64,000 bases of DNA from a virus (IMGVR_UViG_3300027759_000044), one strand, 5' to 3'. Counted from the first letter of the stretch, positions 10,905 through 57,911 are shown. Numbers and translations are program-made. Notes: generated by a model not told the origin, from the sequence alone.

Positions 10905-11383
10905 TACCACTCACCTTCATTACGCATACGTTTAATGAAGTTTAAATAGGTACTACACACTCCGTAGCATCTTAAATGTACTGTACTGAGTAATCCGCGA
11001 TCTTTAAGTTCAGGTAAAACAATAATACTAGTATCATTAACTGGAACAGTTCCTGGTGTCCATAACTTATTACTACTAGTTAGTGCATTGACCATACTAT
11101 TAGGTTGATAGAAGTAGTTTGGATATTGTCTTAATGATTGTGTAGTAAACCAATCATATGTTTCCTGATTACCGCATTTAATCCAAAAACGATTACCCTG
11201 TAGATATTTGTCAGTAACTGGGATAGGTGCTTGTTCTGGCCCTACACAAAGGATGCTATCTATCCTCCAAACATCAACCATACAAGAGAAACCATTATTA
11301 AATGATCTGCCTATTTGGTCGGGAGTATTGGCATCTTCATAGTTTTTTCCATCAAAGATTCCCTGATAAGATATATATAACAT
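10901..11383 (-). CDS. Glycerophosphodiester phosphodiesterase-like protein with degenerate active site
   Basis: ISYQGI..ANTP..MVDVW..LCVGPE aligns by eye to ISHRGN..EN.P..EIDVW..LGHD. Confidence 0.55.
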   Translation of the reverse strand: MLYISYQGIFDGKNYEDANTPDQIGRSFNNGFSCMVDVWRIDSILCVGPEQAPIPVTDKYLQGNRFWIKCGNQETYDWFTTQSLRQYPNYFYQPNSMVNALTSSNKLWTPGTVPVNDTSIIVLPELKDRGLLSTVHLRCYGVCSTYLNFIKRMRNEGEWY

Positions 11384-11472
11384 AATGTATTTATGTCAAC
11401 GAAACAGTTGGCTACCGCGTTATATATATGTAGACTATAAAATCTACTTCATTAACTTAAAGGAAACTTAAA

Positions 11473-11733
11473 ATGAAAACATTAGCAATCGCCCTAATCA
11501 CAACGTTATCAGTAGCTACAGCAATGGCAGCTGAACCAGCAAAAGCTCCAGCAACACCTGCTCCGGCTGCTACAGCACCGGCTGCACCAGCTAAAGCAGA
11601 GGCGCCAAAAGAAGAAATGAAATTGGCTAAGAAAAAGGACGCTCCCAAGGCAGACACTAAAAGTGATGCCAAAACTGCTAGTCCAGCACCAGCAAAAGCT
11701 GACGATAAAAAAGCCGAAACTTCTAAGAAGTAA
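11473..11733 (+). CDS. Secreted Ala/Lys/Pro-rich low-complexity protein
   Basis: Signal peptide MKTLAIALITTLSVATAMA; AAGGA RBS. Confidence 0.8.
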   Translation: MKTLAIALITTLSVATAMAAEPAKAPATPAPAATAPAAPAKAEAPKEEMKLAKKKDAPKADTKSDAKTASPAPAKADDKKAETSKK

Positions 11734-11950
11734 TCCATACCGACTCATAGCAATTAGAACCTGGGGTCTTGATCCTAATAAGGTTCTAGTTGATGATGAG
11801 GACATATTAGTTAATTCCCGTCGTATTATACTAAAGATTGAAACCTCTTTAGATATCAATGAGGACTTAACTGATTATGTTCAGTTGAGATTGTTTCTGG
11901 CCAGAGAAATGGCTATGTCAAAATATAGAGAAATCTATCAACCGGCATAA
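11663..11950 (+). CDS. Hypothetical protein (start uncertain)
   Basis: ORF fills the gap; N-terminal part overlaps the previous gene. Confidence 0.45.
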   Translation: MMPKLLVQHQQKLTIKKPKLLRSNPYRLIAIRTWGLDPNKVLVDDEDILVNSRRIILKIETSLDINEDLTDYVQLRLFLAREMAMSKYREIYQPA

Positions 11951-12016
11951 ATATATATGAAGTTACGGGTTCTTCATAAAAACCTAACTTTTAAACACAC
12001 ACATAGGAGATATAAA

Positions 12017-12289
12017 ATGTTTAACACAGCAACTTACGCCTTTATTGACGGCGTTTCAGACTTTAAAAAGAAATTCGTAGAACAAACAGTTCAACACGAA
12101 GGCATCAAAACAGCAATGAATTCATTCGTTGATGCACAAGCAAAATACACTAAATCAGCCGCAGATGCAGGAATGCAATCTATGATGGCTTTGGGTATGA
12201 TTTTCACAAGCAAAGATTTCTACACAGAAATGGGTGATCAGTTTAAAACAATGGTCCCTGCTTTTAATACAAAGAAAGCTAAAAAGTAA
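12017..12289 (+). CDS. Small helical protein, phasin-like
   Basis: AGGAGA RBS; amphipathic Ala/Lys-rich helices; resemblance only. Confidence 0.4.
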   Translation: MFNTATYAFIDGVSDFKKKFVEQTVQHEGIKTAMNSFVDAQAKYTKSAADAGMQSMMALGMIFTSKDFYTEMGDQFKTMVPAFNTKKAKK

Positions 12290-12290
12290 T

Positions 12291-12458
12291 ATGAAGAAAA
12301 TTCTAGGAATGCTATTAGTGTTCCTAGGTTTCTCTACAGATACCTATGGCACTGAGTTAGAAAAATATATAGTCGGCCGAAATCCACAAGATATAGGCGA
12401 CATTGAGCGATTGACCTATGAGTTCCATCGCAAACAATCAAATTGGAGATTTCTATGA
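12291..12458 (+). CDS. Small hypothetical protein (DUF3563-like, weak)
   Basis: LEKYI..RNPQDIGDIERL pattern. Confidence 0.4.
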   Translation: MKKILGMLLVFLGFSTDTYGTELEKYIVGRNPQDIGDIERLTYEFHRKQSNWRFL

Positions 12459-12660
12459 ACACACTTAAACAACTATTTCAAAGCCTCTTAGAGGCAATCA
12501 GCGATATTAAAAAATATAAAGCAAGTAAAATGCCATGATAGTTACTAATTGGTGGCCGGTTTCAGATGAAGAATGGGAAAGATTGAATTTCCCCGAAAGA
12601 TTTGAACAACCTAAAAAAATGCTATATACTATCTGAACATTTATACAGTAAGGAAACAAA

Positions 12661-12927
12661 ATGTCAGACTACACACCAAAAGTACCAGAAGTTAAATTCA
12701 ATAAAAACGGTTACGAGATTCGTACTGAAATTCTTAGACAAGCACAAGACCTTGTTGGCCAAGAGTTTTCATACAAATGGCAAGGTTGGGAAGTTTCTCA
12801 AGAAAAAGATAAAGATGGTAAACTTGTAACTAAAGTAGGTATGCCAGAATTTCCCGGAGTTGACAAAGTTTTAGAAACTGCGGAAAAGATGTACAGCTTT
12901 GTAAATCAAGCCACTAATAAAAAATAA
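12661..12927 (+). CDS. Hypothetical protein
   Basis: AAGGA RBS. Confidence 0.8.
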   Translation: MSDYTPKVPEVKFNKNGYEIRTEILRQAQDLVGQEFSYKWQGWEVSQEKDKDGKLVTKVGMPEFPGVDKVLETAEKMYSFVNQATNKK

Positions 12928-13826
12928 TGAAACACAATAAATTGACCATTGTGTCCGTATTTGGACACAACGATGGTTCCGCTGCCATACCTTCTATAGT
13001 TAAAAGTATGCAGGAATTACCCGGTAGTAAAGGACTACTTCTGTCTCCGGTAAAACCACAAAATTTACCAACTTCAGTTGAGTGGAAAAAAATTGGTAAT
13101 TTAACTTATAAACAATACTCAGTTTTTATGATGCATTCTTTATATGCGTTTATTGAAACAGATTATTGTTTAGTAGTACAAGAAGATAGTTGGGTATTAA
13201 ACGGTAAAATGTTAACTAAAGAATTCTATCAATATGATTACGTTGGTCCACCGACACATTGTGGATTTCAATTTAATAAAGAAAATACGCTAATAGAAGC
13301 TTTATATTTAAAATATCAATGGATTCATTATTCAAATATAGAAGTAGTACAAAATGGTGGATTTTCATTAAGAAGTAAAAAATTTTTAGAAGCATGTAAT
13401 GTTCATGGTATTACTCATACTTCTCCCGATCCAGTAAAATTAACAAATATTAATAATATTAAAGAGGAACTGTTATGGAGTCATATTTGGAATGAAGATG
13501 TACATCTTACAGGGTTGATTAAACATCAATTAATTAGTCATGGTTATAAATTTGCACCATTGGAGGTAGCAACAAGATTTGCTATTGAATATCTAGATCC
13601 TATATTACATACTGGAATAAACTTTGACGAAATAGTAGGTCATCATGCTAAATCTAGAATTCTACTAGACAATAATCGAGTTATGGTACCAAACAATATC
13701 AGTCAGATGGAAAATTCAACTGAATTAGAAAAAGAATTAATCCATTGGATGTCTACTAAAAAGGGATATACTATTACAGTAGATCCTAATTGGGCTAGCG
13801 AATTTAATACCGTCATCCCCGCCTAA
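12927..13826 (+). CDS. DUF5672 (glycosyltransferase-like) protein, paralog 1
   Basis: LVVQEDSWV, YDYVG, QNGGFSLRSK, NED motifs. Confidence 0.75.
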   Translation: MKHNKLTIVSVFGHNDGSAAIPSIVKSMQELPGSKGLLLSPVKPQNLPTSVEWKKIGNLTYKQYSVFMMHSLYAFIETDYCLVVQEDSWVLNGKMLTKEFYQYDYVGPPTHCGFQFNKENTLIEALYLKYQWIHYSNIEVVQNGGFSLRSKKFLEACNVHGITHTSPDPVKLTNINNIKEELLWSHIWNEDVHLTGLIKHQLISHGYKFAPLEVATRFAIEYLDPILHTGINFDEIVGHHAKSRILLDNNRVMVPNNISQMENSTELEKELIHWMSTKKGYTITVDPNWASEFNTVIPA

Positions 13827-13845
13827 ATCACTAATAAAAATATTA

Positions 13846-14751
13846 ATGTTACATAATCAGTTAACCATTGTATCAGTGTTTGGACACAATGATGGTTCTG
13901 CCGCTATACCTTCCATAGTTAAAAGTATGAAGGAGTTACCCGGTAGTAGAGGACTACTTCTGTCAATTAAAAAACCAGAAGACCTACCAAACGACATTGA
14001 ATGGAAACGTATATTCAATCTAAATTACAAACAATATACACTTTTTATGATGCATTCTCTATATGCGTTTATTGAAACAGATTATTGTTTAGTAGTACAG
14101 GACGACAGTTGGGTGTTAAATGGAAATAAATTTGTTGAAGAATTTTATCAATATGATTATATTGGGCCGCCAACACATTGTGGATTTCAATTTAATAATG
14201 ATGCTTCGTCAATTGAACATCTATTTTTACAATTTCATTGGCTTGATAAACCTAATACATTTGTGGTACAAAATGGTGGATTTTCGTTAAGAAGTAAAAG
14301 ATTCTTAGAAGCATGTAATGTAAATGGCATAACTCATACTATACCCGAACCATTAAAATTAAAAAATGATTCAACAAAAAAAGATAATTTGTGGATTCAT
14401 AATTGGAATGAGGACGTACAGCTTACTGCACTTTTTAGACCAATCTTAACAAGTTGTGGATATAAATTTGCGCCATTGGATGTAGCATCAAAATTTGCTA
14501 TTGAATATCTAGATCCAATTTGGCATAAAGGTATAGAGTTTAATAATATTGTAGGTCATCATGCTAAATCCAGAATCTTATTACCAAATAATTTAATAAG
14601 AGTTCCGAATAATGTAGGTAAAATAGGTAAAATGGAAAAAGATTTTATTAATTGGCTAAAAAATAAAAAGGGATATAATATTATTATGGACAAAGATTGG
14701 GAAAGTAAATTTGGTGGAGGTGACGCCTCAGATAAAAATGTAGTGCGTTAG
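13846..14751 (+). CDS. DUF5672 (glycosyltransferase-like) protein, paralog 2
   Basis: Same motifs; long identical stretches with 12927..13826. Confidence 0.75.
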   Translation: MLHNQLTIVSVFGHNDGSAAIPSIVKSMKELPGSRGLLLSIKKPEDLPNDIEWKRIFNLNYKQYTLFMMHSLYAFIETDYCLVVQDDSWVLNGNKFVEEFYQYDYIGPPTHCGFQFNNDASSIEHLFLQFHWLDKPNTFVVQNGGFSLRSKRFLEACNVNGITHTIPEPLKLKNDSTKKDNLWIHNWNEDVQLTALFRPILTSCGYKFAPLDVASKFAIEYLDPIWHKGIEFNNIVGHHAKSRILLPNNLIRVPNNVGKIGKMEKDFINWLKNKKGYNIIMDKDWESKFGGGDASDKNVVR

Positions 14752-14765
14752 TATTCAAAAATTTA

Positions 14766-14787
14766 CCCCATTAAATGGGGCTTTTTT
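14766..14787 (+). terminator. Rho-independent terminator
   Basis: CCCCA-TTAAA-TGGGG followed by CTTTTTT. Confidence 0.7.
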
Positions 14788-14798
14788 ATACCCAAAAT

Positions 14799-14827
14799 TT
14801 GACAATAAATGGATCTTCTGCTACAAT
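14799..14827 (+). promoter_or_regulatory. Early promoter cassette
   Basis: TTGACAATAAATGG..TACAAT, followed by AGAATCTTAGACAGTTAGATAAAGGA. Confidence 0.9.
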
Positions 14828-14859
14828 AGAATCTTAGACAGTTAGATAAAGGAAACGAA

Positions 14860-15195
14860 ATGACTACATTCATCAAAGGCAATTTCTACGGTACTGAGTA
14901 CGTTGACTACACAAACCCAGTTGATGGTACTACAAAGTTTGTAGCCCGATTCAAATATGTTCGTGGAACTAAAGCTAGTTTCCTTACATTCCTTACAAAG
15001 AACTTTACAGTTGAGGAATACTTTAGCCGTTTAGAAAAGGGTGAGGCTCCGCTTGAAATCGTCGGTTCTAAAGGTTTCATTCAACCCCATATCAAAAAAA
15101 TGCTGAAAGAACAGGGTTATCCAGTTTCCAAGGCAGGGTTTGAGCAATTAGTACAGGATAATGTTGCTAAAACACAACAAAGATTAGCCGCTTAA
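14860..15195 (+). CDS. Early hypothetical protein
   Basis: RBS, follows promoter cassette. Confidence 0.8.
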   Translation: MTTFIKGNFYGTEYVDYTNPVDGTTKFVARFKYVRGTKASFLTFLTKNFTVEEYFSRLEKGEAPLEIVGSKGFIQPHIKKMLKEQGYPVSKAGFEQLVQDNVAKTQQRLAA

Positions 15196-15197
15196 AT

Positions 15198-15226
15198 TTG
15201 ACAATAAATGGATTTGGGCTTATAAT
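15198..15226 (+). promoter_or_regulatory. Early promoter cassette
   Basis: TTGACAATAAATGG..TATAAT, 17-bp spacer. Confidence 0.9.
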
Positions 15227-15259
15227 AGAATCTTAAACAGTTAAACAACGGAGTTAAAC

Positions 15260-15526
15260 ATGAAAGCATTGCAAAAATACATTGACCAGAAGAATCACTG
15301 GAACTCAATCTTTAAAGGTGAGCAATACGAAATTGCTACTCAAGCTGGTCGTCAACGTTTGGCAGATCAAATTGATTCTGCTCTCAGCCCAGAGAATTTG
15401 ACTTGTGATGGAGAACTGCCCCGTGCAGAAGTTAACCGTCGCTACAAAGAATTGATGACTGCCGCTAAACAACTGAAGCAGTTGGATCCATCTGTTAAGT
15501 TTTACGAATACGAAACTGAAGTTTAA
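15260..15526 (+). CDS. Early hypothetical protein
   Basis: GGAG RBS. Confidence 0.8.
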   Translation: MKALQKYIDQKNHWNSIFKGEQYEIATQAGRQRLADQIDSALSPENLTCDGELPRAEVNRRYKELMTAAKQLKQLDPSVKFYEYETEV

Positions 15527-15536
15527 GGAGAAGATT

Positions 15537-16274
15537 ATGCCCGGATTTACTAACGTATCAAATATGACTAGCCGTCAAATTCAACGTATGGGTCACGAGG
15601 ACGATGTTACTCCATATCGTGCTAAAACTAGAACACAAAAAGTTACAATTAACTACAATGCCGATGATGTATGGAGTGCGGCATGTTCGGCTCAACGTAT
15701 TAACGGAAGTTACATTAAGTTGAGTGTAGTATCCGAATCAGATCCAGCTACAACAAAGTTATCCAATCGTATGATTGTTGAACAATTGTTGGCAAACCTA
15801 TCAGGTATCACCGACGAGGATCGTGAACAGGGTAAGAAGGTTCGTGCGTTTTATCAAGCATTGACTTTCAAAATCTTGCAAGGCAAACAACTAAGTGACT
15901 TTGATAACACCGCAATGCTGATTGCTAACAGAGAGGTTATTACTGGTAACTATGATGTTGCTGTAATTGCTAGTTTGCCCTCATGTTATGAGCGTGGTGT
16001 TGTACGTCAAACAGCAGACCAACGTATCAACTTTGCTACAGGTGGTTTTATTGGTAAAGCTAATGACAAGGTGAATGCTTCTATTGAAGTATTGAAATCA
16101 GTATTTTCAATGAAATGGAATACTAACTATGTTACCGGTATTACTACTGATGACCAAGTAGTGTTTTTTGCTTATAAAGAAGCATTGGACATTGGTAAAG
16201 TGTTAAACATTGCAGGTACTGTCAAAGCACATAGAGATAACAGTACACAACTTAATCGTGTAAAGGTATTATGA
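15537..16274 (+). CDS. Hypothetical protein
   Basis: AAGGAG RBS, 245 aa. Confidence 0.8.
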   Translation: MPGFTNVSNMTSRQIQRMGHEDDVTPYRAKTRTQKVTINYNADDVWSAACSAQRINGSYIKLSVVSESDPATTKLSNRMIVEQLLANLSGITDEDREQGKKVRAFYQALTFKILQGKQLSDFDNTAMLIANREVITGNYDVAVIASLPSCYERGVVRQTADQRINFATGGFIGKANDKVNASIEVLKSVFSMKWNTNYVTGITTDDQVVFFAYKEALDIGKVLNIAGTVKAHRDNSTQLNRVKVL

Positions 16275-16498
16275 ACACAGAATTGATTCAGAAATTAAAA
16301 TCGCAATGTATCTTCCGTGAACAACGTGGTACTAATGCTTTTAATAGTTACATGGTAGATCGGTTTGATAGTGAAAAGTTCGCAGAACTGATTGTACGTG
16401 AGTGTGACCGTTATGCCCGTAGTGTGTGGGAACATGGTCCGTTGTTAGGTAGAGATTTATTAATCCATTTTGGAGTTGAGGAGATGAGTGATGAATAA
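16271..16498 (+). CDS. FAELIVxEC-family small protein
   Basis: EKFAELIVREC. Confidence 0.7.
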   Translation: MNTELIQKLKSQCIFREQRGTNAFNSYMVDRFDSEKFAELIVRECDRYARSVWEHGPLLGRDLLIHFGVEEMSDE

Positions 16499-16721
16499 AG
16501 ATATTGAAATTCTATTCAAGCAAGCAGGTGGTTATGTTGAAGTTGATAGTGAAGGTAATCGTTTTACCTATACACAGGACTTTGACCCTGATACTTTTGC
16601 TAGTTTAATTATTCAAAATTGTATTCAAACATTAGTCAATTATGGCTATACAGATGCGGCAACTGTTTTAGAAACAGAGTATGCTGAAGATTGGCAAAAA
16701 ATGGAATTTCCGGAGATTTAA
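16488..16721 (+). CDS. FAELIVxEC-family small protein (divergent)
   Basis: DTFASLIIQNC. Confidence 0.65.
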   Translation: MMNKDIEILFKQAGGYVEVDSEGNRFTYTQDFDPDTFASLIIQNCIQTLVNYGYTDAATVLETEYAEDWQKMEFPEI

Positions 16722-16723
16722 TT

Positions 16724-16852
16724 ATGACAAAATTATTAGTAGGCTTTGTTCTTGGCATCGTTGTTTCAACAGTAGGCTTTAGCGGCATTGCTAAAATGGC
16801 TGACAACGGTGTAGAAAAAGTTAAACAGGTAACTGTTGAACAATCTAAGTGA
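16724..16852 (+). CDS. Small membrane/secreted peptide (42 aa)
   Basis: Translated by me: MTKLLVGFVLGIVVSTVGFSGIAK...; GGAG RBS. Confidence 0.55.
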   Translation: MTKLLVGFVLGIVVSTVGFSGIAKMADNGVEKVKQVTVEQSK

Positions 16853-16881
16853 AATATAAACGTAAAAAGGTGGAGGATATT

Positions 16882-17310
16882 ATGGGACTAGATATGTATG
16901 CTTATGTTGCTAAAAAAAGAGGGCAATACAATGAATTCTACGAAACCGCAGAGTTTGATGGAACAACAAATGATTTTGAAAGTGAAACAGTTACTAAGCC
17001 ACATGAACTTGCGTACTGGCGTAAGCATCCTAACTTGCATGGTTGGATGGAACAACTATGGATTAGTAAAGGGCGTCCAAGACAAAGTGTTGGTTGGCCT
17101 ATATTCAACGGCATTGAACTTGAACTAACATGGGATGACTTGGATAACCTTGAACGTGCTATTCGTCACGGTCAACTTCCGGATACAGAAGGTTTCTTCT
17201 TTGGTAATCCTGCAGACAATCATTACTATGAACAAGACCTTGAATTTGTAAACAACGCTAAGGCAGAAGTGTTCCTGGGATTAAAAGTATTTTACAATAG
17301 CAGTTGGTAA
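16882..17310 (+). CDS. Hypothetical protein (MGLDMY.. family)
   Basis: GGAGG RBS; YWRKHPNLHGWM motif. Confidence 0.8.
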   Translation: MGLDMYAYVAKKRGQYNEFYETAEFDGTTNDFESETVTKPHELAYWRKHPNLHGWMEQLWISKGRPRQSVGWPIFNGIELELTWDDLDNLERAIRHGQLPDTEGFFFGNPADNHYYEQDLEFVNNAKAEVFLGLKVFYNSSW

Positions 17311-17335
17311 CTAAATACCCCGTAAGGGTAACATC

Positions 17336-17518
17336 ATGGACACTATTAAAACAACAATTATAACAATGCTAGTAATCGTAGGAATGATTTGGTTTGTACG
17401 AGAGGGTACCGACGATCCTGATTATGTTGTACTAGAGTATCAGTGTTCCAAACTAGACACATATGAACAAGTGCCTGATCAGGCATATGAAGAATGTAAT
17501 AATCGTAAGGCAAAATAA
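17336..17518 (+). CDS. Small membrane protein
   Basis: N-terminal hydrophobic helix. Confidence 0.65.
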   Translation: MDTIKTTIITMLVIVGMIWFVREGTDDPDYVVLEYQCSKLDTYEQVPDQAYEECNNRKAK

Positions 17519-18003
17519 TGGCTATCTTATATCGCATCAAACCACAAGATAAAAAATCTATTGAGGCATACTATGATGTTTATAGTAAAGATGAACAAGG
17601 TAATATCCGCAGTTGGAGTGTAACCGAAACATATCGTTGGGGTCAAGGATTCGTAGAAGATGAATCTGAGTTACCTTTTAGTGATGATAGAGAACATATT
17701 GTAGATTCTGAAATTGGGTGGGGATGTGAACTTGATGACCTTTGTGCTTGTTGGTTTGAGTTTGATGATAGCTTTACTGATGAAGAAAAAGCCGAAATTG
17801 AACAAGCATGGGAAGATGGTGGAGCAGGATGGCTATATGATAGTGAACATAAATGGGAAGTTGACTATGAAAGTATAACTATTTTGGGTCCATATATAGT
17901 TGACAAAGTTGACGAAGATGTGTATAATGTAAGTATTGAAACAATAGAACTTAAACCCCGTCCACCTTTTGTAGCAACAACAGCGTGGCCATTCTCAGGA
18001 TAA
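17518..18003 (+). CDS. Acidic hypothetical protein
   Basis: D/E-rich 161-aa ORF. Confidence 0.75.
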   Translation: MAILYRIKPQDKKSIEAYYDVYSKDEQGNIRSWSVTETYRWGQGFVEDESELPFSDDREHIVDSEIGWGCELDDLCACWFEFDDSFTDEEKAEIEQAWEDGGAGWLYDSEHKWEVDYESITILGPYIVDKVDEDVYNVSIETIELKPRPPFVATTAWPFSG

Positions 18004-18006
18004 TAT

Positions 18007-19341
18007 ATGTCAGCAAGTTGGATTAATAAATTAAATGAATCAGATAGCCGCCTGCACAAGGAAGATATCATTTTACAGGCGCTTGAGGCAAGTGTCCTAG
18101 GTAGCACTAATGCTCAGATTTTTCTGGGTTTGACCAAAGCTTGTTACAATCCTTATGTGACATTCGGTGTACGAAAAGTGTCTGATACAGTAGGTATCGT
18201 TGATGCTGAAAATCCTTGGAGTGAGTTTAATACATTACTGACTATGTTATCACAACGTGATTTGTCAGGTAATGCCGCACTAGATGCTATCAATGAAATG
18301 AGTGAACGTTTTGATAGTATAGAATGGAATACATTCTGTGCTCCTGTTATTCGTAGAGATTTACGTGCAGGCATTTCAGATAAAACAATCAATAAAATCT
18401 GTAAGAAAACACAATACGAAATTCCAATCTTTGGTTGTCAACTTGCTACTAATAGCGAAGGTCGTCCTGAGATGAAAGGTACTAAACGCCTAGAACCTAA
18501 GCTTGATGGTGTTCGTGTATTGATGATGGTTATCCCGGGTGCAAGCGAAGGTATAACTACAGTTTGCTACAGCCGTAATGGCAAAGTGTTTGATAACTTT
18601 GGTCACATTGAAAAACAGATTAGCGACAACTTTGTTAAGATTGCCAGAGGACATCAGAACGCATTGATTAACGGGTTTGTATTAGATGGAGAAGTGATTG
18701 GTAATACATTCCAAGAACTGATGCGACAAGCACGCCGTAAGACTGATGTACAAGCAGATGACAGTGTGTTCAATATCTTTGATATTATTCCATTAAGTGA
18801 TTTCCGTGAAGGACATTGGAATGCTCAACTACGTAAACGTATTGCTATACTTGAACATATTCGGCACGTAGTTGACACTATGCCTAACGTAGAGTTGTTG
18901 CCTCACATCATGGTTGACTTAGATACAGCCGCAGGTAAGGATCAACTTGAACGCTATGCTAAGGATAATGTCAATGCAGGGTTTGAAGGCATTATGATTA
19001 AAGAATTAGAAGCTCCATATATCTGTAAGCGTAGCACTGATTGGATGAAATGGAAGCCAACATTAACCGTAGACTTGGAGGTCGTAGGTGTTGAAGAAGG
19101 TACTGGTAGAAACTTGGGAAGACTTGGAGCATTGGTTTGTCATGGAGTTGACGACGGGAAAGAAATTACAGTCAATGTGGGTAGTGGCTTTAGTGATACT
19201 GATAGAGATGACTATTACACTAACCGTAATTTGGTCATTGGTCGTACTGCTGAAGTCTTGTGTGATGTGATTACCCAAAATCAAGACGGAACGTATAGTT
19301 TGCGTTTCCCCAGATTTGTTCGTTTCCGTGACGATAAATGA
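18007..19341 (+). CDS. lig: ATP-dependent DNA ligase
   Basis: EPKLDGVR (motif I), LDGEV, FNIFD, EGIMIK, KWKP, SLRFPRF. Confidence 0.96.
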   Translation: MSASWINKLNESDSRLHKEDIILQALEASVLGSTNAQIFLGLTKACYNPYVTFGVRKVSDTVGIVDAENPWSEFNTLLTMLSQRDLSGNAALDAINEMSERFDSIEWNTFCAPVIRRDLRAGISDKTINKICKKTQYEIPIFGCQLATNSEGRPEMKGTKRLEPKLDGVRVLMMVIPGASEGITTVCYSRNGKVFDNFGHIEKQISDNFVKIARGHQNALINGFVLDGEVIGNTFQELMRQARRKTDVQADDSVFNIFDIIPLSDFREGHWNAQLRKRIAILEHIRHVVDTMPNVELLPHIMVDLDTAAGKDQLERYAKDNVNAGFEGIMIKELEAPYICKRSTDWMKWKPTLTVDLEVVGVEEGTGRNLGRLGALVCHGVDDGKEITVNVGSGFSDTDRDDYYTNRNLVIGRTAEVLCDVITQNQDGTYSLRFPRFVRFRDDK

Positions 19342-19366
19342 TAGAATAACTCAATAGGAGAATAAT

Positions 19367-20620
19367 ATGGTAACAGTTGTAAAACATGAATGGCATCAGC
19401 ACGATAGACAATATGCTATTGAAATTGATGAAGCACTATTAAGTGAAATCTATCCTGATTTAGATGAGGATGAAATTAAACAAAAACTCGCAGACCTCGA
19501 GGCAGGTGAAATTGACTACGAAGAAGTGCTTGACGATGCCAATGAAAATGACGTTGAGATTGAATGGGAATTTCAATATGATGACTGTTGGACTGACCGT
19601 AAAGGCGGGTATGAAGTTACATATGAACTAGGTGATGAAGACAGTTGGCATAGTGACCCTCCTCCACCAGAGCCTACGCACAAATGTACTAAGTGCAAGT
19701 GGGTAGGTCAAAGCTATGATGCCGAGTGGTCTTGGGTAGATAAAGAGGGTACTGAAATTGATGACCCTAGAAAAATTTGTCCAATGTGTGAAAGTGATAC
19801 TGAATTAACAGAAGCAGGTATCAAAGATAAAAAAGAATCTGATGAACGTTCTGCACGATGGGCTAAAGAAGCAGTAGATGATGAAGAAGATGACGAACCC
19901 ATTGATGCGACCGAACTAGAGGCAGCATTAGAAGAACTTAAACAAGAATTTGAGACACTTGTGGCAGAACCAGATGTGTTACCTAACTATCCAGCCGGTG
20001 AATACACCATTCGTATTTGGGGTCGTACACGTGAAATTGGTGTACATAAGATTAAGAAAGCACAATACGATTATTGGAGTGATGAAGACCACGAAGATGA
20101 TTTGAGTGATGCTCTTAATGAAAGCTACGATTATGATGAGAACAAAACTCCCAAAGCGGCACAATTTGATTTGCCTTATTATGAGTATCAGGGCAAACAT
20201 TCATTCTGGGGCTTTGACCAAGATGATACTCACATGACCATTACTAATAGTGAAGGTGAAGAGATTTATGAAGGTGATTTAGAATCATTTATTGCTGAAG
20301 CACACGGAGAAGAAGATAGTCGTTGGGAAGCCACAGAAGAACTAGAAGAACTATATCCAGAACATCTAGGTAAGGGTTATTGGTTGATGTGGACACAAGG
20401 TGGTAAAGGTAGTTGTATACAAACTACTATTGAGATTGAAGAAGGTCAAGAGTTTGATCCTCGCAAACTTAAAGTCCTTAACTGGGATATTCAAGGTACA
20501 AGTGTAGTTACACGTTTAGTGTATGACGGTGATGAACTTGATGATAATGGTATGGATAGTGAACATGACAACTGGCGTGGTCAGTGGGCACAGTTTGATG
20601 TATATCATAATACAAAATGA
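19367..20620 (+). CDS. Highly acidic multi-domain protein with zinc ribbon
   Basis: CTKC...CPMC; very D/E-rich; AGGAG RBS. Confidence 0.75.
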   Translation: MVTVVKHEWHQHDRQYAIEIDEALLSEIYPDLDEDEIKQKLADLEAGEIDYEEVLDDANENDVEIEWEFQYDDCWTDRKGGYEVTYELGDEDSWHSDPPPPEPTHKCTKCKWVGQSYDAEWSWVDKEGTEIDDPRKICPMCESDTELTEAGIKDKKESDERSARWAKEAVDDEEDDEPIDATELEAALEELKQEFETLVAEPDVLPNYPAGEYTIRIWGRTREIGVHKIKKAQYDYWSDEDHEDDLSDALNESYDYDENKTPKAAQFDLPYYEYQGKHSFWGFDQDDTHMTITNSEGEEIYEGDLESFIAEAHGEEDSRWEATEELEELYPEHLGKGYWLMWTQGGKGSCIQTTIEIEEGQEFDPRKLKVLNWDIQGTSVVTRLVYDGDELDDNGMDSEHDNWRGQWAQFDVYHNTK

Positions 20621-20829
20621 ACGCATATACTTTAGTAGGTCAATCTTATGTATTTGAAGATGGCAACAGGATTGAAGTAATACAGGTAAAAAAGACTGAT
20701 GAGGATCGTGGTGATTATTTAGTTACATATCACGTTACTCACGGTCCTGGTATTCCTCAAAAGCTAGTTTTACCTGTAGCTGAATTTCTTAGTTATTATA
20801 GTCACTTATTTGACGTTAGTATAGACTAA
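20617..20829 (+). CDS. Hypothetical protein
   Basis: ATGA-coupled. Confidence 0.7.
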   Translation: MNAYTLVGQSYVFEDGNRIEVIQVKKTDEDRGDYLVTYHVTHGPGIPQKLVLPVAEFLSYYSHLFDVSID

Positions 20830-20836
20830 ATATTAG

Positions 20837-22366
20837 ATGCGCCTTAAATTTTTATCATTCTCAAATCTCACATTATTAGTAGCACTATCATTAAGTTCAG
20901 TAGCTGCCTGGTATAGTATAATTGGCTTAACCGCTATCTTTGCAGGTGCGGTTATTCCTGTTATTATTATGGGTGGTATCCTAGAAATAGGAAAGATCAC
21001 TACAACTGTTTGGTTACGCAAGTACTGGAGTCGTTGTGGCTTCCTACTTAAACTATACCTTGTACCTGCTGTTATTGCATTAGCATTACTCACTAGCATG
21101 GGTATCTTTGGCTTCCTAAGTAAAGCGCATATGGAACACGGTTTAAATACCGGTGATAGCCAGGCTAAGTTATCATTGTATGATGAGAAGATAAAAACAC
21201 AACGAGATAATATTGAGTTAGCCCGTAAAGCATTAACTCAAATGGACAATCAAGTTGACCAACGATTAAGTCGCGGTGATAGTGAGAATAGTGCTGAACG
21301 TGCTGTACAGATTCGTAGACAACAAGCAGGTGAGCGTAGTAGATTACAAAAAGATATCGGTGATGCTCAAAAAGAAATTGCTAAATTAAACGAAGAACGA
21401 GCACCTATTGCGGCAGAGAATCGTAAAGTAGAAGCAGAAGTTGGACCTATCAAATATATTGCCGCATTGATGTATGGTGATAATGCTGATAACAATATGT
21501 TAGAGAGTGCAGTACGTTGGGTTATTATTTTATTGGTTATTGTATTTGATCCATTAGCTATTGCGTTAGTGTTAGCTGCCAATGCAAGTAAGGAATGGGA
21601 TGAGGAGGGTGACAGCCCTCTAGGGACTGAACCAATATCAACTCCCACTGTCACAGAACCAGCATATGAGCCTGATGATGGTCCATTAACTGATGACCAA
21701 ATTAAACAGATTATTGCAATGGCAGGAACCCCCAAACATCCTATTAACTGTTACATGTGTGGCACTGAGTTGGTTAATGCTACTGGCATTGGTTTATTCT
21801 GCCCAAATAAATTATGTGATGTTAAAGATGGTCCTTTTGAAGAACCAGAAGTAGAACCTAAAACTATATTAGAACAACATCCTTACTTAAGTAAACCATT
21901 TGTGAGTTTTGACACTAAACCAATGGTTGCTCCAAAAGAAGAAATAGTAGAAGATACATCAGAAATTATTCAATCCGAGAAACCTTATAAGGAATTAGAA
22001 GGTGGTTATGTAATGTTTGAAGATAAACATTACCAAATGGATGCATTAAAGAGTTTACGCCCAGATATATTTATGGCAACTGCTGATAGTCAACGTTCAA
22101 TTAGTACAAATTTTGGTATTAAATTTCCAGATGGTGCTAATAAAGGGGATGTATTTGTACGAGTAGATTCATTACCAAATCGTGTCTATAAGTATGACGG
22201 TCGTAAATGGATTGAGGTTCAAAAGGAACAGTCGGATACCTATCTACATAACCAAAAATATATCAAATATCTGGTTGAAAAGATAGAAAAGGGCGAATAC
22301 GATTTGGATTTATTGTCCGAAACTGAAAAGGAACAGATAGAATTGTTCCTAAAGAATCAAAAATAA
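20837..22366 (+). CDS. Membrane protein with coiled coil (DUF4407-like) and Cys motif
   Basis: Three N-terminal TM helices, long coiled coil, further TM, CYMC..CPNKLC. Confidence 0.7.
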   Translation: MRLKFLSFSNLTLLVALSLSSVAAWYSIIGLTAIFAGAVIPVIIMGGILEIGKITTTVWLRKYWSRCGFLLKLYLVPAVIALALLTSMGIFGFLSKAHMEHGLNTGDSQAKLSLYDEKIKTQRDNIELARKALTQMDNQVDQRLSRGDSENSAERAVQIRRQQAGERSRLQKDIGDAQKEIAKLNEERAPIAAENRKVEAEVGPIKYIAALMYGDNADNNMLESAVRWVIILLVIVFDPLAIALVLAANASKEWDEEGDSPLGTEPISTPTVTEPAYEPDDGPLTDDQIKQIIAMAGTPKHPINCYMCGTELVNATGIGLFCPNKLCDVKDGPFEEPEVEPKTILEQHPYLSKPFVSFDTKPMVAPKEEIVEDTSEIIQSEKPYKELEGGYVMFEDKHYQMDALKSLRPDIFMATADSQRSISTNFGIKFPDGANKGDVFVRVDSLPNRVYKYDGRKWIEVQKEQSDTYLHNQKYIKYLVEKIEKGEYDLDLLSETEKEQIELFLKNQK

Positions 22367-22395
22367 TTGACAATAATTGGAGAGTGTGTTAATAT
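22367..22395 (+). promoter_or_regulatory. sigma70-type promoter
   Basis: TTGACAATAA..TAATAT, 17-bp spacer. Confidence 0.65.
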
Positions 22396-22425
22396 ACACA
22401 TATCTTAAACTTATTGGAGATTTAA

Positions 22426-23061: not shown

Positions 23062-23063
23062 TT

Positions 23064-24089: not shown

Positions 24090-24102
24090 GATAAGTATTA
24101 AT

Positions 24103-25308: not shown

Positions 25309-25523
25309 TTAGAGGACGCAAAGTTTTAGTTAATGACGGAAATACAGAAAAGGCCCTACGTAAATTCAAAAAAATGATTACGGATTATGGTACTTTACAA
25401 GAAGTCCGTGACCGACAAGAATTTGTGAAACCTACTGTTAAACGCAAACTAGCTAAAAGTCAGGCTAAAAGACGTTGGGACAAATATTTGCGTGAACAAA
25501 CTTTACCTAAAAAGTTGTTTTAA
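25305..25523 (+). CDS. rpsU: Ribosomal protein bS21
   Basis: [27 protein letters not shown]. Confidence 0.9.
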
Positions 25524-25570
25524 TTGCCCTAAATAATATATTTCTTTACACAATCTAGTATAATAAATAC

Positions 25571-25635
25571 TTTTCTATCGATGCCTAACGGGTCTATAGA
25601 AGAAAAAATCTTGCTTTACAAAGGAGAAAACTATG
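25571..25635 (+). promoter_or_regulatory. Structured 5' leader of dnaK with ROSE-like SD-sequestering hairpin
   Basis: CTTGCTT-TACA-AAGGAG pairs with a bulged G; upstream hairpin contains GATGCC..GGGTC; ATAAATA at 25563. Confidence 0.6.
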
Positions 25636-27528: not shown

Positions 27529-27538
27529 CCTAAACAAA

Positions 27539-29107: not shown

Positions 29108-29122
29108 TAATCAATTCAGTAG

Positions 29123-43974: not shown

Positions 43975-44025
43975 AATAATATCTCTTGTAGTATATTTAT
44001 GATTTAAAATTTGATGTGATTAACT

Positions 44026-47642: not shown

Positions 47643-47682
47643 GAAATTACCTTTTATGTAAGTTTAATAGTATTTATGACAA

Positions 47683-47722: not shown

Positions 47723-48394
47723 TTATGTTGTTTTATTCTCATTAGCGGCTGATTCAATAGTCTGTACTTCATTTGTCTGTATACTATTATCTGAAGGTGA
47801 TTGATTGGTTAACTCTAACATAATATCTTTTTGTTCTAACAATACAGTACCTTGTGGAACAAGCCCAATTTGCATTAATGCATTTAATGTTTGAGGATTA
47901 CTCATAGCATTTAATAGTTTAGCTGGACTAGGTCTACCCAAAGCAATGATTTCTGATTGTATCTCACGACCAACTGTTACTGTAAACTCATAATTAGCAT
48001 TAGCTTCAAACATTTCGTCATCAGTATATGGTGTCCCATCTTCATGTTTCAAGCGTGTTGGTTCAACTTCAGCATACAGTTCAGCCATATATTTTTCTAG
48101 TATTTTAATCTCTTTACGATTAAGTTCAAAAGCATGTCTTTGGTCCTCTAAATGTGATTCTAATTCAAGGATTTCTGCTTGTAAATTAAGTAATATGTGA
48201 GGTAGTGCAGGTACTGTTTTTAAGTGTTTCATTTCTTCAAGTTTAGCTTGATATTTTAATTCGGCACATTCTTCTAGTACTGCGGCACGTGTTCTGCCGA
48301 CATAGAAGCCTTGAAGTGTTTTGATTTTTTCCCAGGGTGTTGAACCGATAACTTGGTAACGGTAGTTGAATTCTGAATTTAGATTTGATGCCAT
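47723..48394 (-). CDS. Coiled-coil hypothetical protein heading the propeller locus
   Basis: 223 aa, helical; TATAAATA late motif at 48424-48431 (minus). Confidence 0.8.
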   Translation of the reverse strand: MASNLNSEFNYRYQVIGSTPWEKIKTLQGFYVGRTRAAVLEECAELKYQAKLEEMKHLKTVPALPHILLNLQAEILELESHLEDQRHAFELNRKEIKILEKYMAELYAEVEPTRLKHEDGTPYTDDEMFEANANYEFTVTVGREIQSEIIALGRPSPAKLLNAMSNPQTLNALMQIGLVPQGTVLLEQKDIMLELTNQSPSDNSIQTNEVQTIESAANENKTT

Positions 48395-49973: not shown

Positions 49974-50510
49974 ATGACAGAAGTAAAACCACTATCACGT
50001 AGTGAACGTGAAGCACAAATTAAAGATAGAGCAGGATGGGTAATTACTGTTATTGCTTTACTACTAGCAATAACAACTTATGTAGCTAATGGATTCAGTA
50101 GTAAAATACTAACTAATACTATCAAAGCAAATGATACTTGGAACTTCTATCAAGCTAAGAGTATCAAACAAAGTATTGCTGAAGGTCAATTAGAAGATGC
50201 CAAAGATCCAAAACGCAGAGAACAACTAGAAGCTAAGATTGCCCGTTATGAAAGTGATCCAGCTAAAGGTGAGGGTAAGAAAGAATTAATGGCTAAAGCA
50301 TTACAAATTGAAGCTGAACGTGATGATGCCAAAAAACATACCCCATGGTTAACTTTTGCCGGAATGGCATTTCAGTTAGCCATTGTGTTACTTTCAGCTA
50401 GTATTTTAGCTGTAGATAAACGTATGTTTTGGGGTAGTATTGGCGTTAGTGTTTTTGGTTCATTACTATTAGCCCAAGGCATTTGGCTTATTCTACCATT
50501 TGTGATATAA
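49974..50510 (+). CDS. DUF4337-like membrane protein
   Basis: ANDTWNFYQAKSIKQ; N- and C-terminal TM helices. Confidence 0.75.
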   Translation: MTEVKPLSRSEREAQIKDRAGWVITVIALLLAITTYVANGFSSKILTNTIKANDTWNFYQAKSIKQSIAEGQLEDAKDPKRREQLEAKIARYESDPAKGEGKKELMAKALQIEAERDDAKKHTPWLTFAGMAFQLAIVLLSASILAVDKRMFWGSIGVSVFGSLLLAQGIWLILPFVI

Positions 50511-50517
50511 TAACTAA

Positions 50518-51075
50518 ATGAAACTTAAGGAATTAATGGAAGATACTAACAAAAAAATGCCACATCTATACTTAGATATGGATGGGGTTCAAGCCGACTT
50601 CTTTGGAGCTTGGGCCGCAAAGCACAATGTTGGTAATTATAAAGAGATTCCTGATACTGAAACATCAATCAATGAATTAGCCTCAAGTAGCCCCGAAGAA
50701 GTATATAAGTTTTTTAGAGAACTAAAACCTCTTCAAGGTGGAGGCAAAGTTGTACGGTGGTTAAATCAACATAACATTCCATACACAGTATTAAGTGCTC
50801 CATTACGTGGCCCATATGCTAGTGCTAGTGTAAAAGCTAAAAAAGATTGGTTAGATGAACACAATCCAAATGCTACTCAAAATGCTATCTTTACGCAACA
50901 TAAACACAAATACGCATTAAAAGGTAGTGAGCCGAATGTGTTAGTAGATGATTACGGTAAATATTTAAATCTTTGGAGTAACGCAGGTGGTATTGCTGTG
51001 AAACATGAAGATGAGAATACTGACCACACTATTAAGTCATTAGAAAAGATTTATGCCCCTTATCTAACTAGATAA
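50518..51075 (+). CDS. HAD-family 5'(3')-deoxyribonucleotidase-like protein
   Basis: LYLDMDGV.ADF, ILS.P, K..WL, LVDDY.K..W..GG..H. Confidence 0.85.
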   Translation: MKLKELMEDTNKKMPHLYLDMDGVQADFFGAWAAKHNVGNYKEIPDTETSINELASSSPEEVYKFFRELKPLQGGGKVVRWLNQHNIPYTVLSAPLRGPYASASVKAKKDWLDEHNPNATQNAIFTQHKHKYALKGSEPNVLVDDYGKYLNLWSNAGGIAVKHEDENTDHTIKSLEKIYAPYLTR

Positions 51076-51083
51076 GTATTAAT

Positions 51084-51269
51084 ATGAAAAAACCCGGCAA
51101 AGACTTAGTTCGTTATGAAGTATTAACACATGAAGATCCAGACACGGGTGATTTAATGTTGCCTATACCACAGAAGTTATTAGATGAATTGGGTTGGCGT
51201 GAGGGTGATGAGATAGAATTTGCTATAGATGAAAAGGGCAAGTACATCTTAAAACGAGCAAATAAATGA
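51084..51269 (+). CDS. AbrB/MazE/SpoVT-family DNA-binding protein
   Basis: L.LPIP..LL..LGW.EGD.IEF. Confidence 0.75.
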   Translation: MKKPGKDLVRYEVLTHEDPDTGDLMLPIPQKLLDELGWREGDEIEFAIDEKGKYILKRANK

Positions 51270-52122: not shown

Positions 52123-52335
52123 ATGGCAAAAGAAGAAGGTCTAAGAATGGATGGTACGGTAACTGATGTGTTGCCAAATGCCATGTTCCGTGTCAAAGTT
52201 AATGGCACAAATGTAATAGGTTATATTTCTGGCAAGATGCGCCAGCATGATATTAAAGTTCTACTCGGTGATACAGTAGAATTAGAATTTAGTCCATACG
52301 ACTTAACTAAAGGACGTATTGTACGTAGAAGATAA
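52123..52335 (+). CDS. infA: Translation initiation factor IF-1
   Basis: [28 protein letters not shown]. Confidence 0.95.
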
Positions 52336-55135: not shown

Positions 55136-56100
55136 TTGTAACATCATGTCCTTTAAGGATATCGTTAGTGGGTGGGTCAACCGATCACCCGCATTTTATT
55201 AATAAGTACGGACACGGATCTGTTATTAGTTTCCCCTCAACATTACGTACATATATAACTATTCACCAAGATATTTTTGGTAGTAATTCTATAGGTAATA
55301 ATTATCATATTAATTATAGTAAACGAGAAACCGTAAAAAAAGTATCTGAAATTCAAAATGAATTAATACGATATTGTTTTGAATATCTTAATGTAGATAA
55401 AATGAATTGTAGTTTGACTTCAGATATTTATAGTTCTGGTTCAGGGTTAGCGGCAAGTTCTTCTTATTTACAAGCTTTAATAAAAGCCATATATGTATTG
55501 CGTGAAGAACATATAACTGAATTTGAAGTATGTAAAATAGCAGAGATTATTGAAAGAAATTTTAATCCATTGGTAGGACAACAAGATTTCTATGGAAGTA
55601 CCGGCGGATTGAAACGCATAGATTTTTATAAAAACACTGATCCGTCAATACGTTATTTAAGCACAAACATATTCAAACAATTAAACATATATTTACTATA
55701 TACAGGAGTATTACGCAGTAGTACCAATATATTAGAAAGTATAGATATAGACAAATCAATACCTCTATTACAGGATGTTGAAGATTTAGAAATTGCTATA
55801 AACAATTGTGATATTGAAAAGTTTGGTAACGTTATAAATCGTGGTTGGGAAAATAAAAAAGCTACCAGTAATTTAATATGTGGATCGCCCGCACTTTTAG
55901 AATTAGATAATAAACTTAAAAATGATTCTAACATATTAGCACACAAATTATGTGGTGCCGGCAATGGTGGATATTTTCTAATTTTTACTAATTTCAATAG
56001 TGGATTTGATCCAACTAAATATGATATGTTGAAATCCATCAGCATATCAGAGACCGGATTAAAATATATTAATTTAAAAAATGAATTTACAAAACTTTAA
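55132..56100 (+). CDS. GHMP sugar kinase, HddA (heptose-7-phosphate kinase)-like
   Basis: PLRISL.GG.TD, GSGLA.SS, GQQD, KL.GAG.GG. Confidence 0.85.
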   Translation: MIVTSCPLRISLVGGSTDHPHFINKYGHGSVISFPSTLRTYITIHQDIFGSNSIGNNYHINYSKRETVKKVSEIQNELIRYCFEYLNVDKMNCSLTSDIYSSGSGLAASSSYLQALIKAIYVLREEHITEFEVCKIAEIIERNFNPLVGQQDFYGSTGGLKRIDFYKNTDPSIRYLSTNIFKQLNIYLLYTGVLRSSTNILESIDIDKSIPLLQDVEDLEIAINNCDIEKFGNVINRGWENKKATSNLICGSPALLELDNKLKNDSNILAHKLCGAGNGGYFLIFTNFNSGFDPTKYDMLKSISISETGLKYINLKNEFTKL

Positions 56101-56578
56101 ATCTTGCCTTGATAATATAAAGCAAGATGACCTATCTAAATTAAAACAATACGTTCTTGGTGCCAAAAACATAATCATTCTAGGTAACGGTGGTAGTAAC
56201 GCTATTAGCTGTCATCTAGCACAAGATTATACAAAAGCATTGGGAATTAAAACCATAGCATTCGGAGATAGTTCCAGAATGAGTTGTTACGCAAATGACT
56301 ATGGATGGGATAATGCCTATACCAAATTTTTAGAACATTTTGCTGATTCTGATACCATGGTGATATTGATATCATCTTCTGGTAATTCTCAAAATATACT
56401 CAATGCGGCTGAATATTGTGTAGGTAAACATGGTATGATTACTTTATCCGGATTTAATCCTGACAATAAATTAAAAACAAAATATGGTTCACCCTCTTTA
56501 TTAAATTTTTATATTCCCAGTAATGATTATGGGGTGGTGGAAATACTTCACGAACTCATTTTACATTCTGTCATATGA
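56081..56578 (+). CDS. gmhA: SIS-domain phosphoheptose isomerase (GmhA-like)
   Basis: GNGGS.A..H...D, AND.G, ISSSGNS.NI, VE..H. Confidence 0.82.
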   Translation: MNLQNFKSCLDNIKQDDLSKLKQYVLGAKNIIILGNGGSNAISCHLAQDYTKALGIKTIAFGDSSRMSCYANDYGWDNAYTKFLEHFADSDTMVILISSSGNSQNILNAAEYCVGKHGMITLSGFNPDNKLKTKYGSPSLLNFYIPSNDYGVVEILHELILHSVI

Positions 56579-57327
56579 AGTCTACTATTATAACACACTT
56601 TTTTAATGAAGAATATCTATTGCCGTGGTGGTTAGAACATCATAAGAAGATATTTGATTATGGGATATTAATTGATTATGCTTCTACAGATAATTCAGTA
56701 AATATCATAAAAGAAATATGTCCAAATTGGTTAGTTATTCCTAGTATTCATAAAGAATTTGATTCAAAATTACAAAATGATGAAATACAGTATTGGGAAA
56801 ACCGTATAGAAGGTTGGCGTATTGCGTTAAATATAACTGAATTTTTAGTAGGAAATGTTAGTGATAAGTTTATAACGTCTCACCAAAGATTACAATATTT
56901 AATCCCAAGTATTAGCTTTTTTGATTGGGATCCTAGTGGAAGTTTAGATAGAGCCAAACCATTATGGGAGCAAAAGAAGTATGGGGTTTCTTATGAAACC
57001 GATTTCCATAATCTTCCCGGTAGATGGTCTAGAAGTTTACATAATTTCAATGATATAGTATATGAGCGAGGTAGACATTTTACACAGGGCTGGAATACTG
57101 TAAATCCATTAATTTTTCATTATGCCAATTGTATATCTAGTCCCGAAATGTTATCCAGAAGATTAAATTTACAGACAAAAATATCAATGGGTGATATACA
57201 AAATCATAGGGGCTGGCAACATACCAATTTTGGTAGAGGGCTTACAGTAGAATCAGTGATTGAATATAATAATTCCCATGCTCATAAAGTATCAGATTGT
57301 TCTAATTTCATAAATAGTGTAACTTAA
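56575..57327 (+). CDS. GT-A fold glycosyltransferase-like protein
   Basis: FFNEE.LLPWW..HH..FD...LIDY.STD.S. Confidence 0.75.
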   Translation: MKSTIITHFFNEEYLLPWWLEHHKKIFDYGILIDYASTDNSVNIIKEICPNWLVIPSIHKEFDSKLQNDEIQYWENRIEGWRIALNITEFLVGNVSDKFITSHQRLQYLIPSISFFDWDPSGSLDRAKPLWEQKKYGVSYETDFHNLPGRWSRSLHNFNDIVYERGRHFTQGWNTVNPLIFHYANCISSPEMLSRRLNLQTKISMGDIQNHRGWQHTNFGRGLTVESVIEYNNSHAHKVSDCSNFINSVT

Positions 57328-57356
57328 AAGTCTTAGATTAGATTGATAAATACTCA

Positions 57357-57911
57357 ATGCGTGACATTATTACATTGCTTGAGGACAAGGCTAAACCTCA
57401 AGATATAGAAATTATACCACTAAACTTCACAGCAAGTGAGGTTAAACCTGTATTAAGCCAAGATACCTTAGACCTACATTACGGTAAATTAGCCCATGGG
57501 TATGCTGAACGCTACAATAAGGGTGAAGGTGACAAAGATTTTAATTATGCAGGTGCTTTCTTACATAACACATTATTCCCCCAATTCCGTGAAGTTAGAA
57601 ATAACAACAAACCAAACGGCCCTATGTACGGATTTATCAATAAGCATTATAAAACGTATGACGATATGAAGTTAAAGTTTGAAGAAGAAGCAATGAAGAT
57701 TCAGGGATCAGGTTGGATCTATCTTGCGTATGACGGTAGTATAAAAACAATCAAAAACCATGAAGTAAGAAATGATATTCTACTATTGATAGATTGGTGG
57801 GAACATGCTTGGATACTTGATTACGGTGCAGACAAGAAAAAGTATTTAAAAGAGCAATGGAAAATCATCAATTGGAATGTAATTAACACAAGATGGGGCC
57901 GAAGTTTATGA
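57357..57911 (+). CDS. sod: Fe/Mn superoxide dismutase
   Basis: LHYGK, FLHN, DWWEHAW (all four metal ligands present). Confidence 0.93.

Follow-up and report, generated by a model that had tools for sequence, protein, structure and literature searches.

Probable late promoter boxes abutting start codons, and predicted leaderless late messages, in an uncultured giant freshwater phage

In IMGVR_UViG_3300027759_000044, part of an uncultured giant freshwater phage, the hexamer TAA(A/G)TA ends a few nucleotides (nt) before the ATG of several genes that have no Shine-Dalgarno (SD) sequence. This raises the question of whether the element is a late promoter of the type known from phage T4 and, if it is, whether the messages that it starts carry any leader at all. 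Our best reading, which we hold at a probability of about 0.72, is that these late promoters abut their ATGs and would give leaderless late mRNAs. Just where transcription starts, that it does so late, and by what route the messages are translated are inferred from sequence. By the window we mean the whole stretch of 64,000 nt that was analyzed.

A search of IMG/VR with the gene at 20837-22366 found 155 related stretches, and the best 80 of the 155 loci (proteins 53 to 92% identical, contigs up to 524 kb) served as the orthologue set of that gene. Genome-wide counts were taken from G001, a complete relative of 348,701 bp; the window matches positions 216 to 263 kb of it at 66 to 95% nucleotide identity, with most blocks at 80 to 92%. 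Lake-water metatranscriptomes contain fragments of the window or of close relatives (four runs), and the matches on 9750-29749 were short assembled contigs, which carry no information on transcript starts or ends and showed no usable pattern of bridging.

Box-proximal starts in the window and in a complete relative

The original prediction listed seven genes in which TAA(A/G)TA ends 4 to 5 nt before the first ATG of the frame with no SD, and we found all seven to be as described. On the minus strand, TAAATA at 11388-11393 stands 4 nt before ATG 11383 (11383-11393; ATAAATAcattATG), the start of a 160-amino-acid gene in a divergent intergenic region; the box is kept at 4 to 6 nt in 18 orthologue loci, and the sequence upstream of it varies. 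The other six are on the plus strand. At 20837, the start of a 509-amino-acid gene, (C)TAAATA precedes the ATG by 4 nt (20827-20839; CTAAATAttagATG), and the TAA of the box doubles as the stop codon of 20617-20829. (A/C)TAAATA is present in nearly all of the 80 orthologue loci of this gene (53 to 92% amino acid identity), mostly with a gap of 4 and in some with 5 to 7, and the sequence farther upstream is unrelated between clades. An ATAAATA box 4 nt before ATG 29557 (29547-29559; ATAAATAcattATG) lies in a 98-nt divergent intergenic region in front of an SprT-like gene and is kept in about 50 loci (54 to 94% identity), again mostly at 4 nt with some at 5 to 8. The Fe/Mn superoxide dismutase (SOD) gene has ATAAATA 4 nt before ATG 57357 (57347-57359; ATAAATActcaATG). 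Most of the approximately 65 distinct upstream regions of SOD orthologues carry ATAAATA at 4 to 7 nt, behind quite different neighbors, and one SOD clade has a stop/start overlap instead of the box. A 109-amino-acid membrane-like protein begins at ATG 37960, 5 nt after ATAAATA (37949-37962; ATAAATAgtagtATG), and its G001 orthologue at 229666 also has a gap of 5.

Two of the seven carry the variant TAAGTA, 5 nt before the ATG in each: clpX at 24103 (24092-24105; GATAAGTAttaatATG) and a gene at 51084 (51073-51086; GATAAGTAttaatATG) for a 61-amino-acid AbrB/MazE-like protein (Pfam). Their identical 16-mer, GATAAGTATTAATATG, was likewise as originally reported. In most of about 70 clpX loci, GATAAGTA or GATAAATTA is found at the same distance, and about 10 distant loci have other AT-rich sequence in place of the box. 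A recurring subtype, AGATAAGTATTAA(T/C)ATG, with G at the fifth box position, comprises 24092-24105, 51073-51086 and a site at 90587 of G001; it is identical at clpX and the AbrB-like gene, is kept in relatives and may be a separate timing class. Pfam confirmed the identities of ClpX, the SprT-like protein, the Fe/Mn-SOD, bS21, IF-1 and ClpS.

Two further sites lie outside the original list. TAAATA at 9840-9845 is 4 nt before ATG 9850 (9840-9852, plus strand) and lies within the last codons of the upstream gene; (A/C)TAAATA is kept in 12 of 13 orthologues. At 11957 (11948-11959, plus strand), TAAATA is 3 nt before the ATG, and we regard a leaderless start there as doubtful because the frame has a strong SD and a further ATG 20 codons in (dG -7.3). 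Some relatives have GTG as the first codon or lack that codon altogether. Among five genes whose orthologues are 53 to 96% identical in protein sequence, the box and its spacing were kept as the surrounding DNA diverged.

We then counted the spacing independently of gene models, taking TAA[AG]TA followed by an ATG that opens at least 50 codons. The window holds one, five and three such sites at gaps of 3, 4 and 5 nt and none at gaps of 6, 7 and 9 to 13, and each of twelve composition-matched control hexamers gave 0 to 3 sites at gaps 4 and 5 combined. Overall, the window has fewer copies of the motif than its shuffled versions do (149 versus 206 ± 13), as expected for a signal that must not arise by accident. 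For G001 we used TAAATA (466 copies on both strands) before an ATG opening at least 60 codons. The resulting histogram of motif-to-ATG distance, which the original prediction had proposed as a check, has a sharp peak at 4 to 5 nt (35 sites, 16 at gap 4 and 19 at gap 5), at most 2 sites at each gap from 6 to 11 and a second, broad group of boxes at 12 to 30 nt. Where a box stands close to an ATG, no start codon precedes that ATG in its frame in nearly all cases. In this phage, roughly one gene in ten has a box 4 to 5 nt before its ATG with no ribosome-binding site, and about one-third of the probable late promoters abut an ATG.

With an SD called at an anti-SD duplex energy of -5 kcal/mol or better, which 7% of random 19-mers pass, none of the 26 box-proximal genes of G001 had one, compared with 126 of 285 others (44%; p=8e-7); in the window, the figures were 0 of 6 versus 42% of other genes. 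A good SD was found in 53% of the 62 G001 genes with a box 12 to 39 nt upstream. The effect in G001 is also specific to ATG, with 27 ATG versus 1 GTG and 2 TTG, the latter being the level of non-start control codons. Furthermore, a pyrimidine precedes the ATG at 86% of box-proximal starts in G001 (49% at its other starts), at 83% in the cultured Xanthomonas phage XacN1 and at 100% in the cultured Pelagibacter phage Mosig, compared with 37 to 49% elsewhere. This preference fits the usual pyrimidine at -1 and purine at +1 of a transcription start.

The starts themselves might be wrongly placed. If the true starts lay downstream, with ordinary ribosome-binding sites, the box would simply give a normal leader, and at 11957, 37960 and 50518 a later ATG in the same frame does follow a site with an anti-SD energy of -6 to -7 kcal/mol (at 37960, the alternative ATG with its SD-like site is 15 codons in). 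However, a strong alternative of this sort was present in 15% of box-proximal genes versus 12% of others, N termini are conserved across orthologues from the proposed ATG and, by Pfam, the zinc finger of ClpX starts at residue 9 when translation is taken from ATG 24103, which marks this ATG as the right start for clpX. We find general misplacement very unlikely.

Translation might instead come from polycistronic read-through RNA by termination-reinitiation, with the box serving as an internal promoter for downstream genes or, in part, as the upstream stop codon. The arrangement at several sites would suit this: at six of the nine window sites a gene on the same strand ends 0 to 30 nt earlier, the upstream gene at 51084, like that at 20837, takes its stop codon from the TAA of the box, and the SOD clade without a box has the stop/start overlap. 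Such coupling would not predict the sharp spacing of 4 to 5 nt, the ATG specificity or the pyrimidine at -1. It also has no upstream gene to work from at 11383 (minus strand) and 29557, whose divergent intergenic regions hold none on their strand. Sites in G001 come right after terminators or a tRNA, and the SOD orthologues keep their box behind unrelated neighbors. We therefore consider coupling an unlikely general explanation.

The box as a probable late promoter

The T4 late promoter consists of TATAAATA, placed roughly one turn of the helix before the start; it has no -35 element and is used with the sigma factor gp55, the coactivator gp33 and the sliding clamp gp45 (PMC2988020). In the relatives of the window, a gp55-type late sigma (phrog_234, E of about 1e-22) was found in five of five large contigs, including complete G001, and it is present in XacN1 and Mosig as well. 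(A/C)TAAATA is conserved as the sequence upstream of it varies freely, with no -35 element kept. Some boxes of G001 come immediately after terminator hairpins or the 3' end of a tRNA. In such places, and in the short divergent intergenic regions at 11383 and 29557, a promoter is needed. On these grounds, (A/C)TAA(A/G)TA is very probably a T4-type late promoter.

The same box also precedes genes with leaders. On the minus strand, a box at 47671-47676 lies 28 nt from ATG 47642 with the SD AAAGG between them (47642-47676). The gene that follows, 44409-47642, encodes a 1,077-amino-acid fn3-repeat protein that matches virion and capsid-decoration proteins of Stenotrophomonas phages. Boxes on the same strand stand 19 nt before ATG 43974 (43994-43999; feature 43974-43999, gene 43021-43974), 21 nt before 40981 (gene 40736-40981) and 29 nt before 48394 (gene 47723-48394). 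Together with 58284, these neighbors of the fn3 gene share with it leaders of 18 to 29 nt with SD-like purine runs. Pfam and PHROGs gave no match for 58284, 59792, 19367, 42005, 43021 or 47723, so that the label "structural" rests on the virion matches of the fn3 protein.

The leadered promoter of 58284 (58244-58286, plus strand; box 58260-58265, SD AAGGA, ATG 58284) has a further feature. Its SD lies in a hairpin arm, 58269-58282, that pairs with an arm upstream of the box, 58244-58257, and the box itself is in the loop. Across 27 distinct relatives, the arms covary: own pairs have a mean energy of -10.6 kcal/mol, cross-pairs -8.2 and shuffled pairs -4.6. RNAalifold reported no structure on the alignment of the 58284 upstream region, in which the hairpin was seen by per-sequence duplex energies with cross-pair controls. 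A covarying hairpin of this design makes sense only if the RNA starts between its arms. In T4, genes e, 49 and I-TevI have a hairpin that keeps read-through early RNA untranslated; late transcripts begin within the hairpin sequence and so escape it. The hairpin of 58284 would likewise mask the SD in read-through RNA.

Could the element act in RNA rather than in DNA? As an A/U-rich translation signal for S1, bS21 or IF-1, or as a processing site at which RNA is trimmed to the AUG, it would account for the fixed position near the AUG and the lack of an SD, and the phage does encode bS21 and IF-1. Against this, the same element lies 18 to 40 nt upstream of SD-led genes and inside the loop of the SD-masking hairpin, it matches the box of a sigma factor encoded by the relatives of the window, XacN1 has the layout without bS21 or IF-1, and a complete -35/-10 promoter takes the place of the element in orthologues. 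An RNA-level role is quite improbable given these observations.

That replacement is seen at 50518, an NT5C-like nucleotidase gene. In the window, TTGGCT-N17-TATAAT, with TATAAT at 50506-50511, ends 6 nt before the ATG with no SD (50482-50520, plus strand), and orthologues have either TTGACA-N17-TATAAT-6 nt-ATG or ATAAATA-5 nt-ATG. Because these orthologues swap the two, the late box sits where the -10 hexamer sits. The positions agree. The box hexamer ATAAAT ends 5 to 6 nt before the ATG and, at a gap of 5, spans -12 to -7 if +1 is the A of the ATG; the host-type TATAAT stops 6 nt short of the ATG, both at 50518 and in 12 G001 genes. The leaderless layout is thus not specific to late boxes. 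AbrB/MazE-like genes in related phages (L106-L185; relatives of 51084) were seen 5 to 7 nt behind TTGAYA-N17-TATACT promoters.

The statement that early cassettes all have strong SD sites proved too broad, since 50518, with its host-type promoter, has none. The cassettes at 14800-15260 and 33150-34480 share a near-identical promoter-leader unit, TATAATAGAATCTTAGACAGT...AAAGGA...ATG, which is repeated before at least six small genes. At ClpS (28110; region 28098-28112), we noted an upstream hairpin and CTAAATTAACTAT before the ATG, with no SD; CTAAATTAACTAT is possibly a weak or variant box at 6 nt.

We propose that host RNA polymerase carrying the phage gp55-like sigma would read (A/C)TAA(A/G)TA and, at the roughly one-third of late promoters with the box 4 to 5 nt (4 to 7 in relatives) from an ATG, would begin transcription on the A of the start codon or no more than a base or two away from it. 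The product would be a 5'-AUG message with no SD, and the ribosome with initiator tRNA would bind the 5'-terminal AUG directly. Read-through RNA would carry the same AUG internally, also with no SD, so that efficient translation of clpX-bS21, SprT, SOD, the AbrB-like gene and others would be tied to use of the late promoter. This would be the logic of the SD-masking hairpin of 58284, achieved by other means.

Several observations weigh against the proposal. From the T4 register (box at about -13 to -6), the original prediction put +1 on or beside the A of the ATG. This agrees with a gap of 5. With a gap of 4, the commonest spacing in the window, the strict register puts +1 on the T, and transcription would have to begin a base sooner than it does in T4. 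In relatives where the gap is 6 to 8, leaders of 1 to 3 nt would result. The same-strand genes close upstream of six of the nine sites mean that termination-reinitiation could translate those six, and 37960 and 11957 have downstream alternative starts with SD-like sites. The evidence for the gp55-type sigma comes from contigs of relatives only. Of its T4 partners, both small and fast-diverging proteins, gp33 (phrog_254) was not found in G001 to G003 or XacN1, and gp45 (phrog_223) was weak in G003 (6e-4) and XacN1 (4e-6) and not found in G001 or G002.

With gp33 not detected and gp45 weak, the late machinery may differ from that of T4, and the size of the sigma points the same way. The gp55-like sigmas of the relatives (L083-L087; G001:87079-87384 and others) are 304 to 325 amino acids long versus 185 in T4, and they match only positions 22 to 136 of the 181-position T4-type profile. 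The extra length might replace the missing partner, given that no gp33 was detected.

bS21, IF-1 and the proposed switch of initiation mode

The original prediction went on to propose a programmed switch from SD-led to leaderless translation, possibly assisted by phage initiation components. The window does encode bS21 (25305-25523, plus strand; PF01165, 57.6 bits) and IF-1 (52123-52335, plus strand; PF01176, 74.4 bits), both recognized by Pfam. The start of the bS21 gene overlaps the stop of clpX (ATGA) and has no SD of its own, so that the two are likely coexpressed. bS21 would then be made late, from the clpX unit with its leaderless-type start, which fits the late expression of phage bS21 reported in another lake phage group (PMC9723584). 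The IF-1 gene is not box-proximal; it has an SD-like AGAAGG just upstream, and most relatives have a clear SD there. In G002 (524,565 bp; L019, L047), the homologue of 20837, bS21 and IF-1 each occur in two diverged copies; the contig is either a chimera, assembled from two related phages, or the carrier of a large duplication. A Bacteroidota host, to which lake bS21 phages have been assigned (PMC9723584), was rejected as a basis for argument in view of the strong AAGGA sites and the TTGACA/TATAAT promoters.

A switch across the whole program was not borne out. The 62 G001 genes with a box at 12 to 39 nt outnumber the 26 box-proximal ones by about 2 to 1, virion-type genes keep their SD leaders, and host-type promoters are fused to ATGs as well. 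The layout is present in XacN1 and Mosig and absent from T4, and it does not require phage bS21 or IF-1. The jumbo phage XacN1 (50% G+C) has TAAATA at nine sites with gap 5 and six with gap 6, has TATAAT at nine sites each with gaps 6 and 7, and encodes neither bS21 nor IF-1. Mosig has six ATAAATA sites at 5 nt with bS21 and no IF-1. T4 has no box-to-ATG sites and neither protein. Nothing that we found links bS21 or IF-1 to the leaderless-type starts.

In its strongest form, the idea would be that the phage's own bS21, from the clpX-bS21 unit, together with IF-1 remodels host ribosomes late in infection so that 5'-AUG messages outcompete SD-led host and early messages. If true, this would be a virus-programmed change of initiation mode. 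bS21 supports SD-dependent initiation, and ribosomes without it favor leaderless messages. This background points away from bS21-assisted leaderless translation, and we judge the remodeling scheme very improbable.

Relation to known systems and what the layout would mean

Late promoters of the T4 type are well known, and so are leaderless messages; the fusion of the box to the start codon appears to be the new part. The window resembles T4 in its box, in the lack of a conserved -35, in the gp55-type sigma of its relatives, in the leadered boxes before virion-type genes and in the SD-masking hairpin. Unlike here, where about one-third of boxes abut an ATG, T4 has no ATAAATA within 0 to 11 nt of an ATG opening at least 60 codons, and its distances peak at 21 to 29 nt; the undetected gp33 and the longer sigma are further differences.

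There is also a likeness to the Rak2-like jumbo phages vB_PcaM_CBB and GAP32, for which an ATAAATA late motif and a gp55-like sigma have been described (PMC5259590). Like the phages studied here, they are jumbo phages that have ATAAATA ahead of structural genes and encode a gp55-like sigma; neither gp33 nor gp45 is detectable in CBB and GAP32. By its description, to which our comparison was confined, that paper reports no start-codon-fused boxes, in contrast to those found here. Start-site maps of phiKZ and AR9 have no leaderless transcripts, and we found no published account of T4-related or jumbo phages in which late boxes are fused to start codons.

Leaderless messages themselves have good precedents. 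In Deinococcus-Thermus, the -10 region of leaderless genes adjoins the open reading frame (PMC12340547), and the Thermus phages phiYS40 and Lalka27a have mostly leaderless transcripts, including late ones with a phage-specific -10 box (bioRxiv 10.64898/2026.04.20.719267). Those hosts are leaderless throughout, whereas most genes here have a strong SD and only a subset is of the leaderless type. The Thermus phages differ in that their leaderless transcripts were mapped, whereas ours are predicted, and in that the promoter here is of the T4 type. The classic leaderless phage message is lambda cI mRNA from PRM (PMC10491246). It too has its promoter directly before the start codon, and the AbrB-like 51084 and its host-promoter relatives look like the same design. 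Unlike cI, a single regulatory gene of a temperate phage, the layout here would place tens of genes under a late sigma.

If the reading of late promoters abutting ATGs is right, T4-related phages of the aquatic and jumbo kinds, a group that is large and common worldwide, would express about one-tenth of their genes by a leaderless route, one thought to be marginal in most Gram-negative hosts. Translation would be tied to promoter choice with no extra RNA structure. Gene callers that require a ribosome-binding site will misplace box-proximal starts, and many genes whose function is unknown are predicted, from the layout, to be expressed late. With XacN1 and Mosig, the layout can be tested directly in cultured phages.

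Among the genes concerned are those for chaperones and proteases, one stress gene and one for a ribosomal protein. We also noted that a proteostasis cluster at 24103-28418 comprises ClpX, bS21, DnaK (631 amino acids; Hsp70, E=1e-258) and ClpS, and that the genes for the Fe/Mn-SOD and an IscA-like Fe-S protein lie together at 57357-58234.

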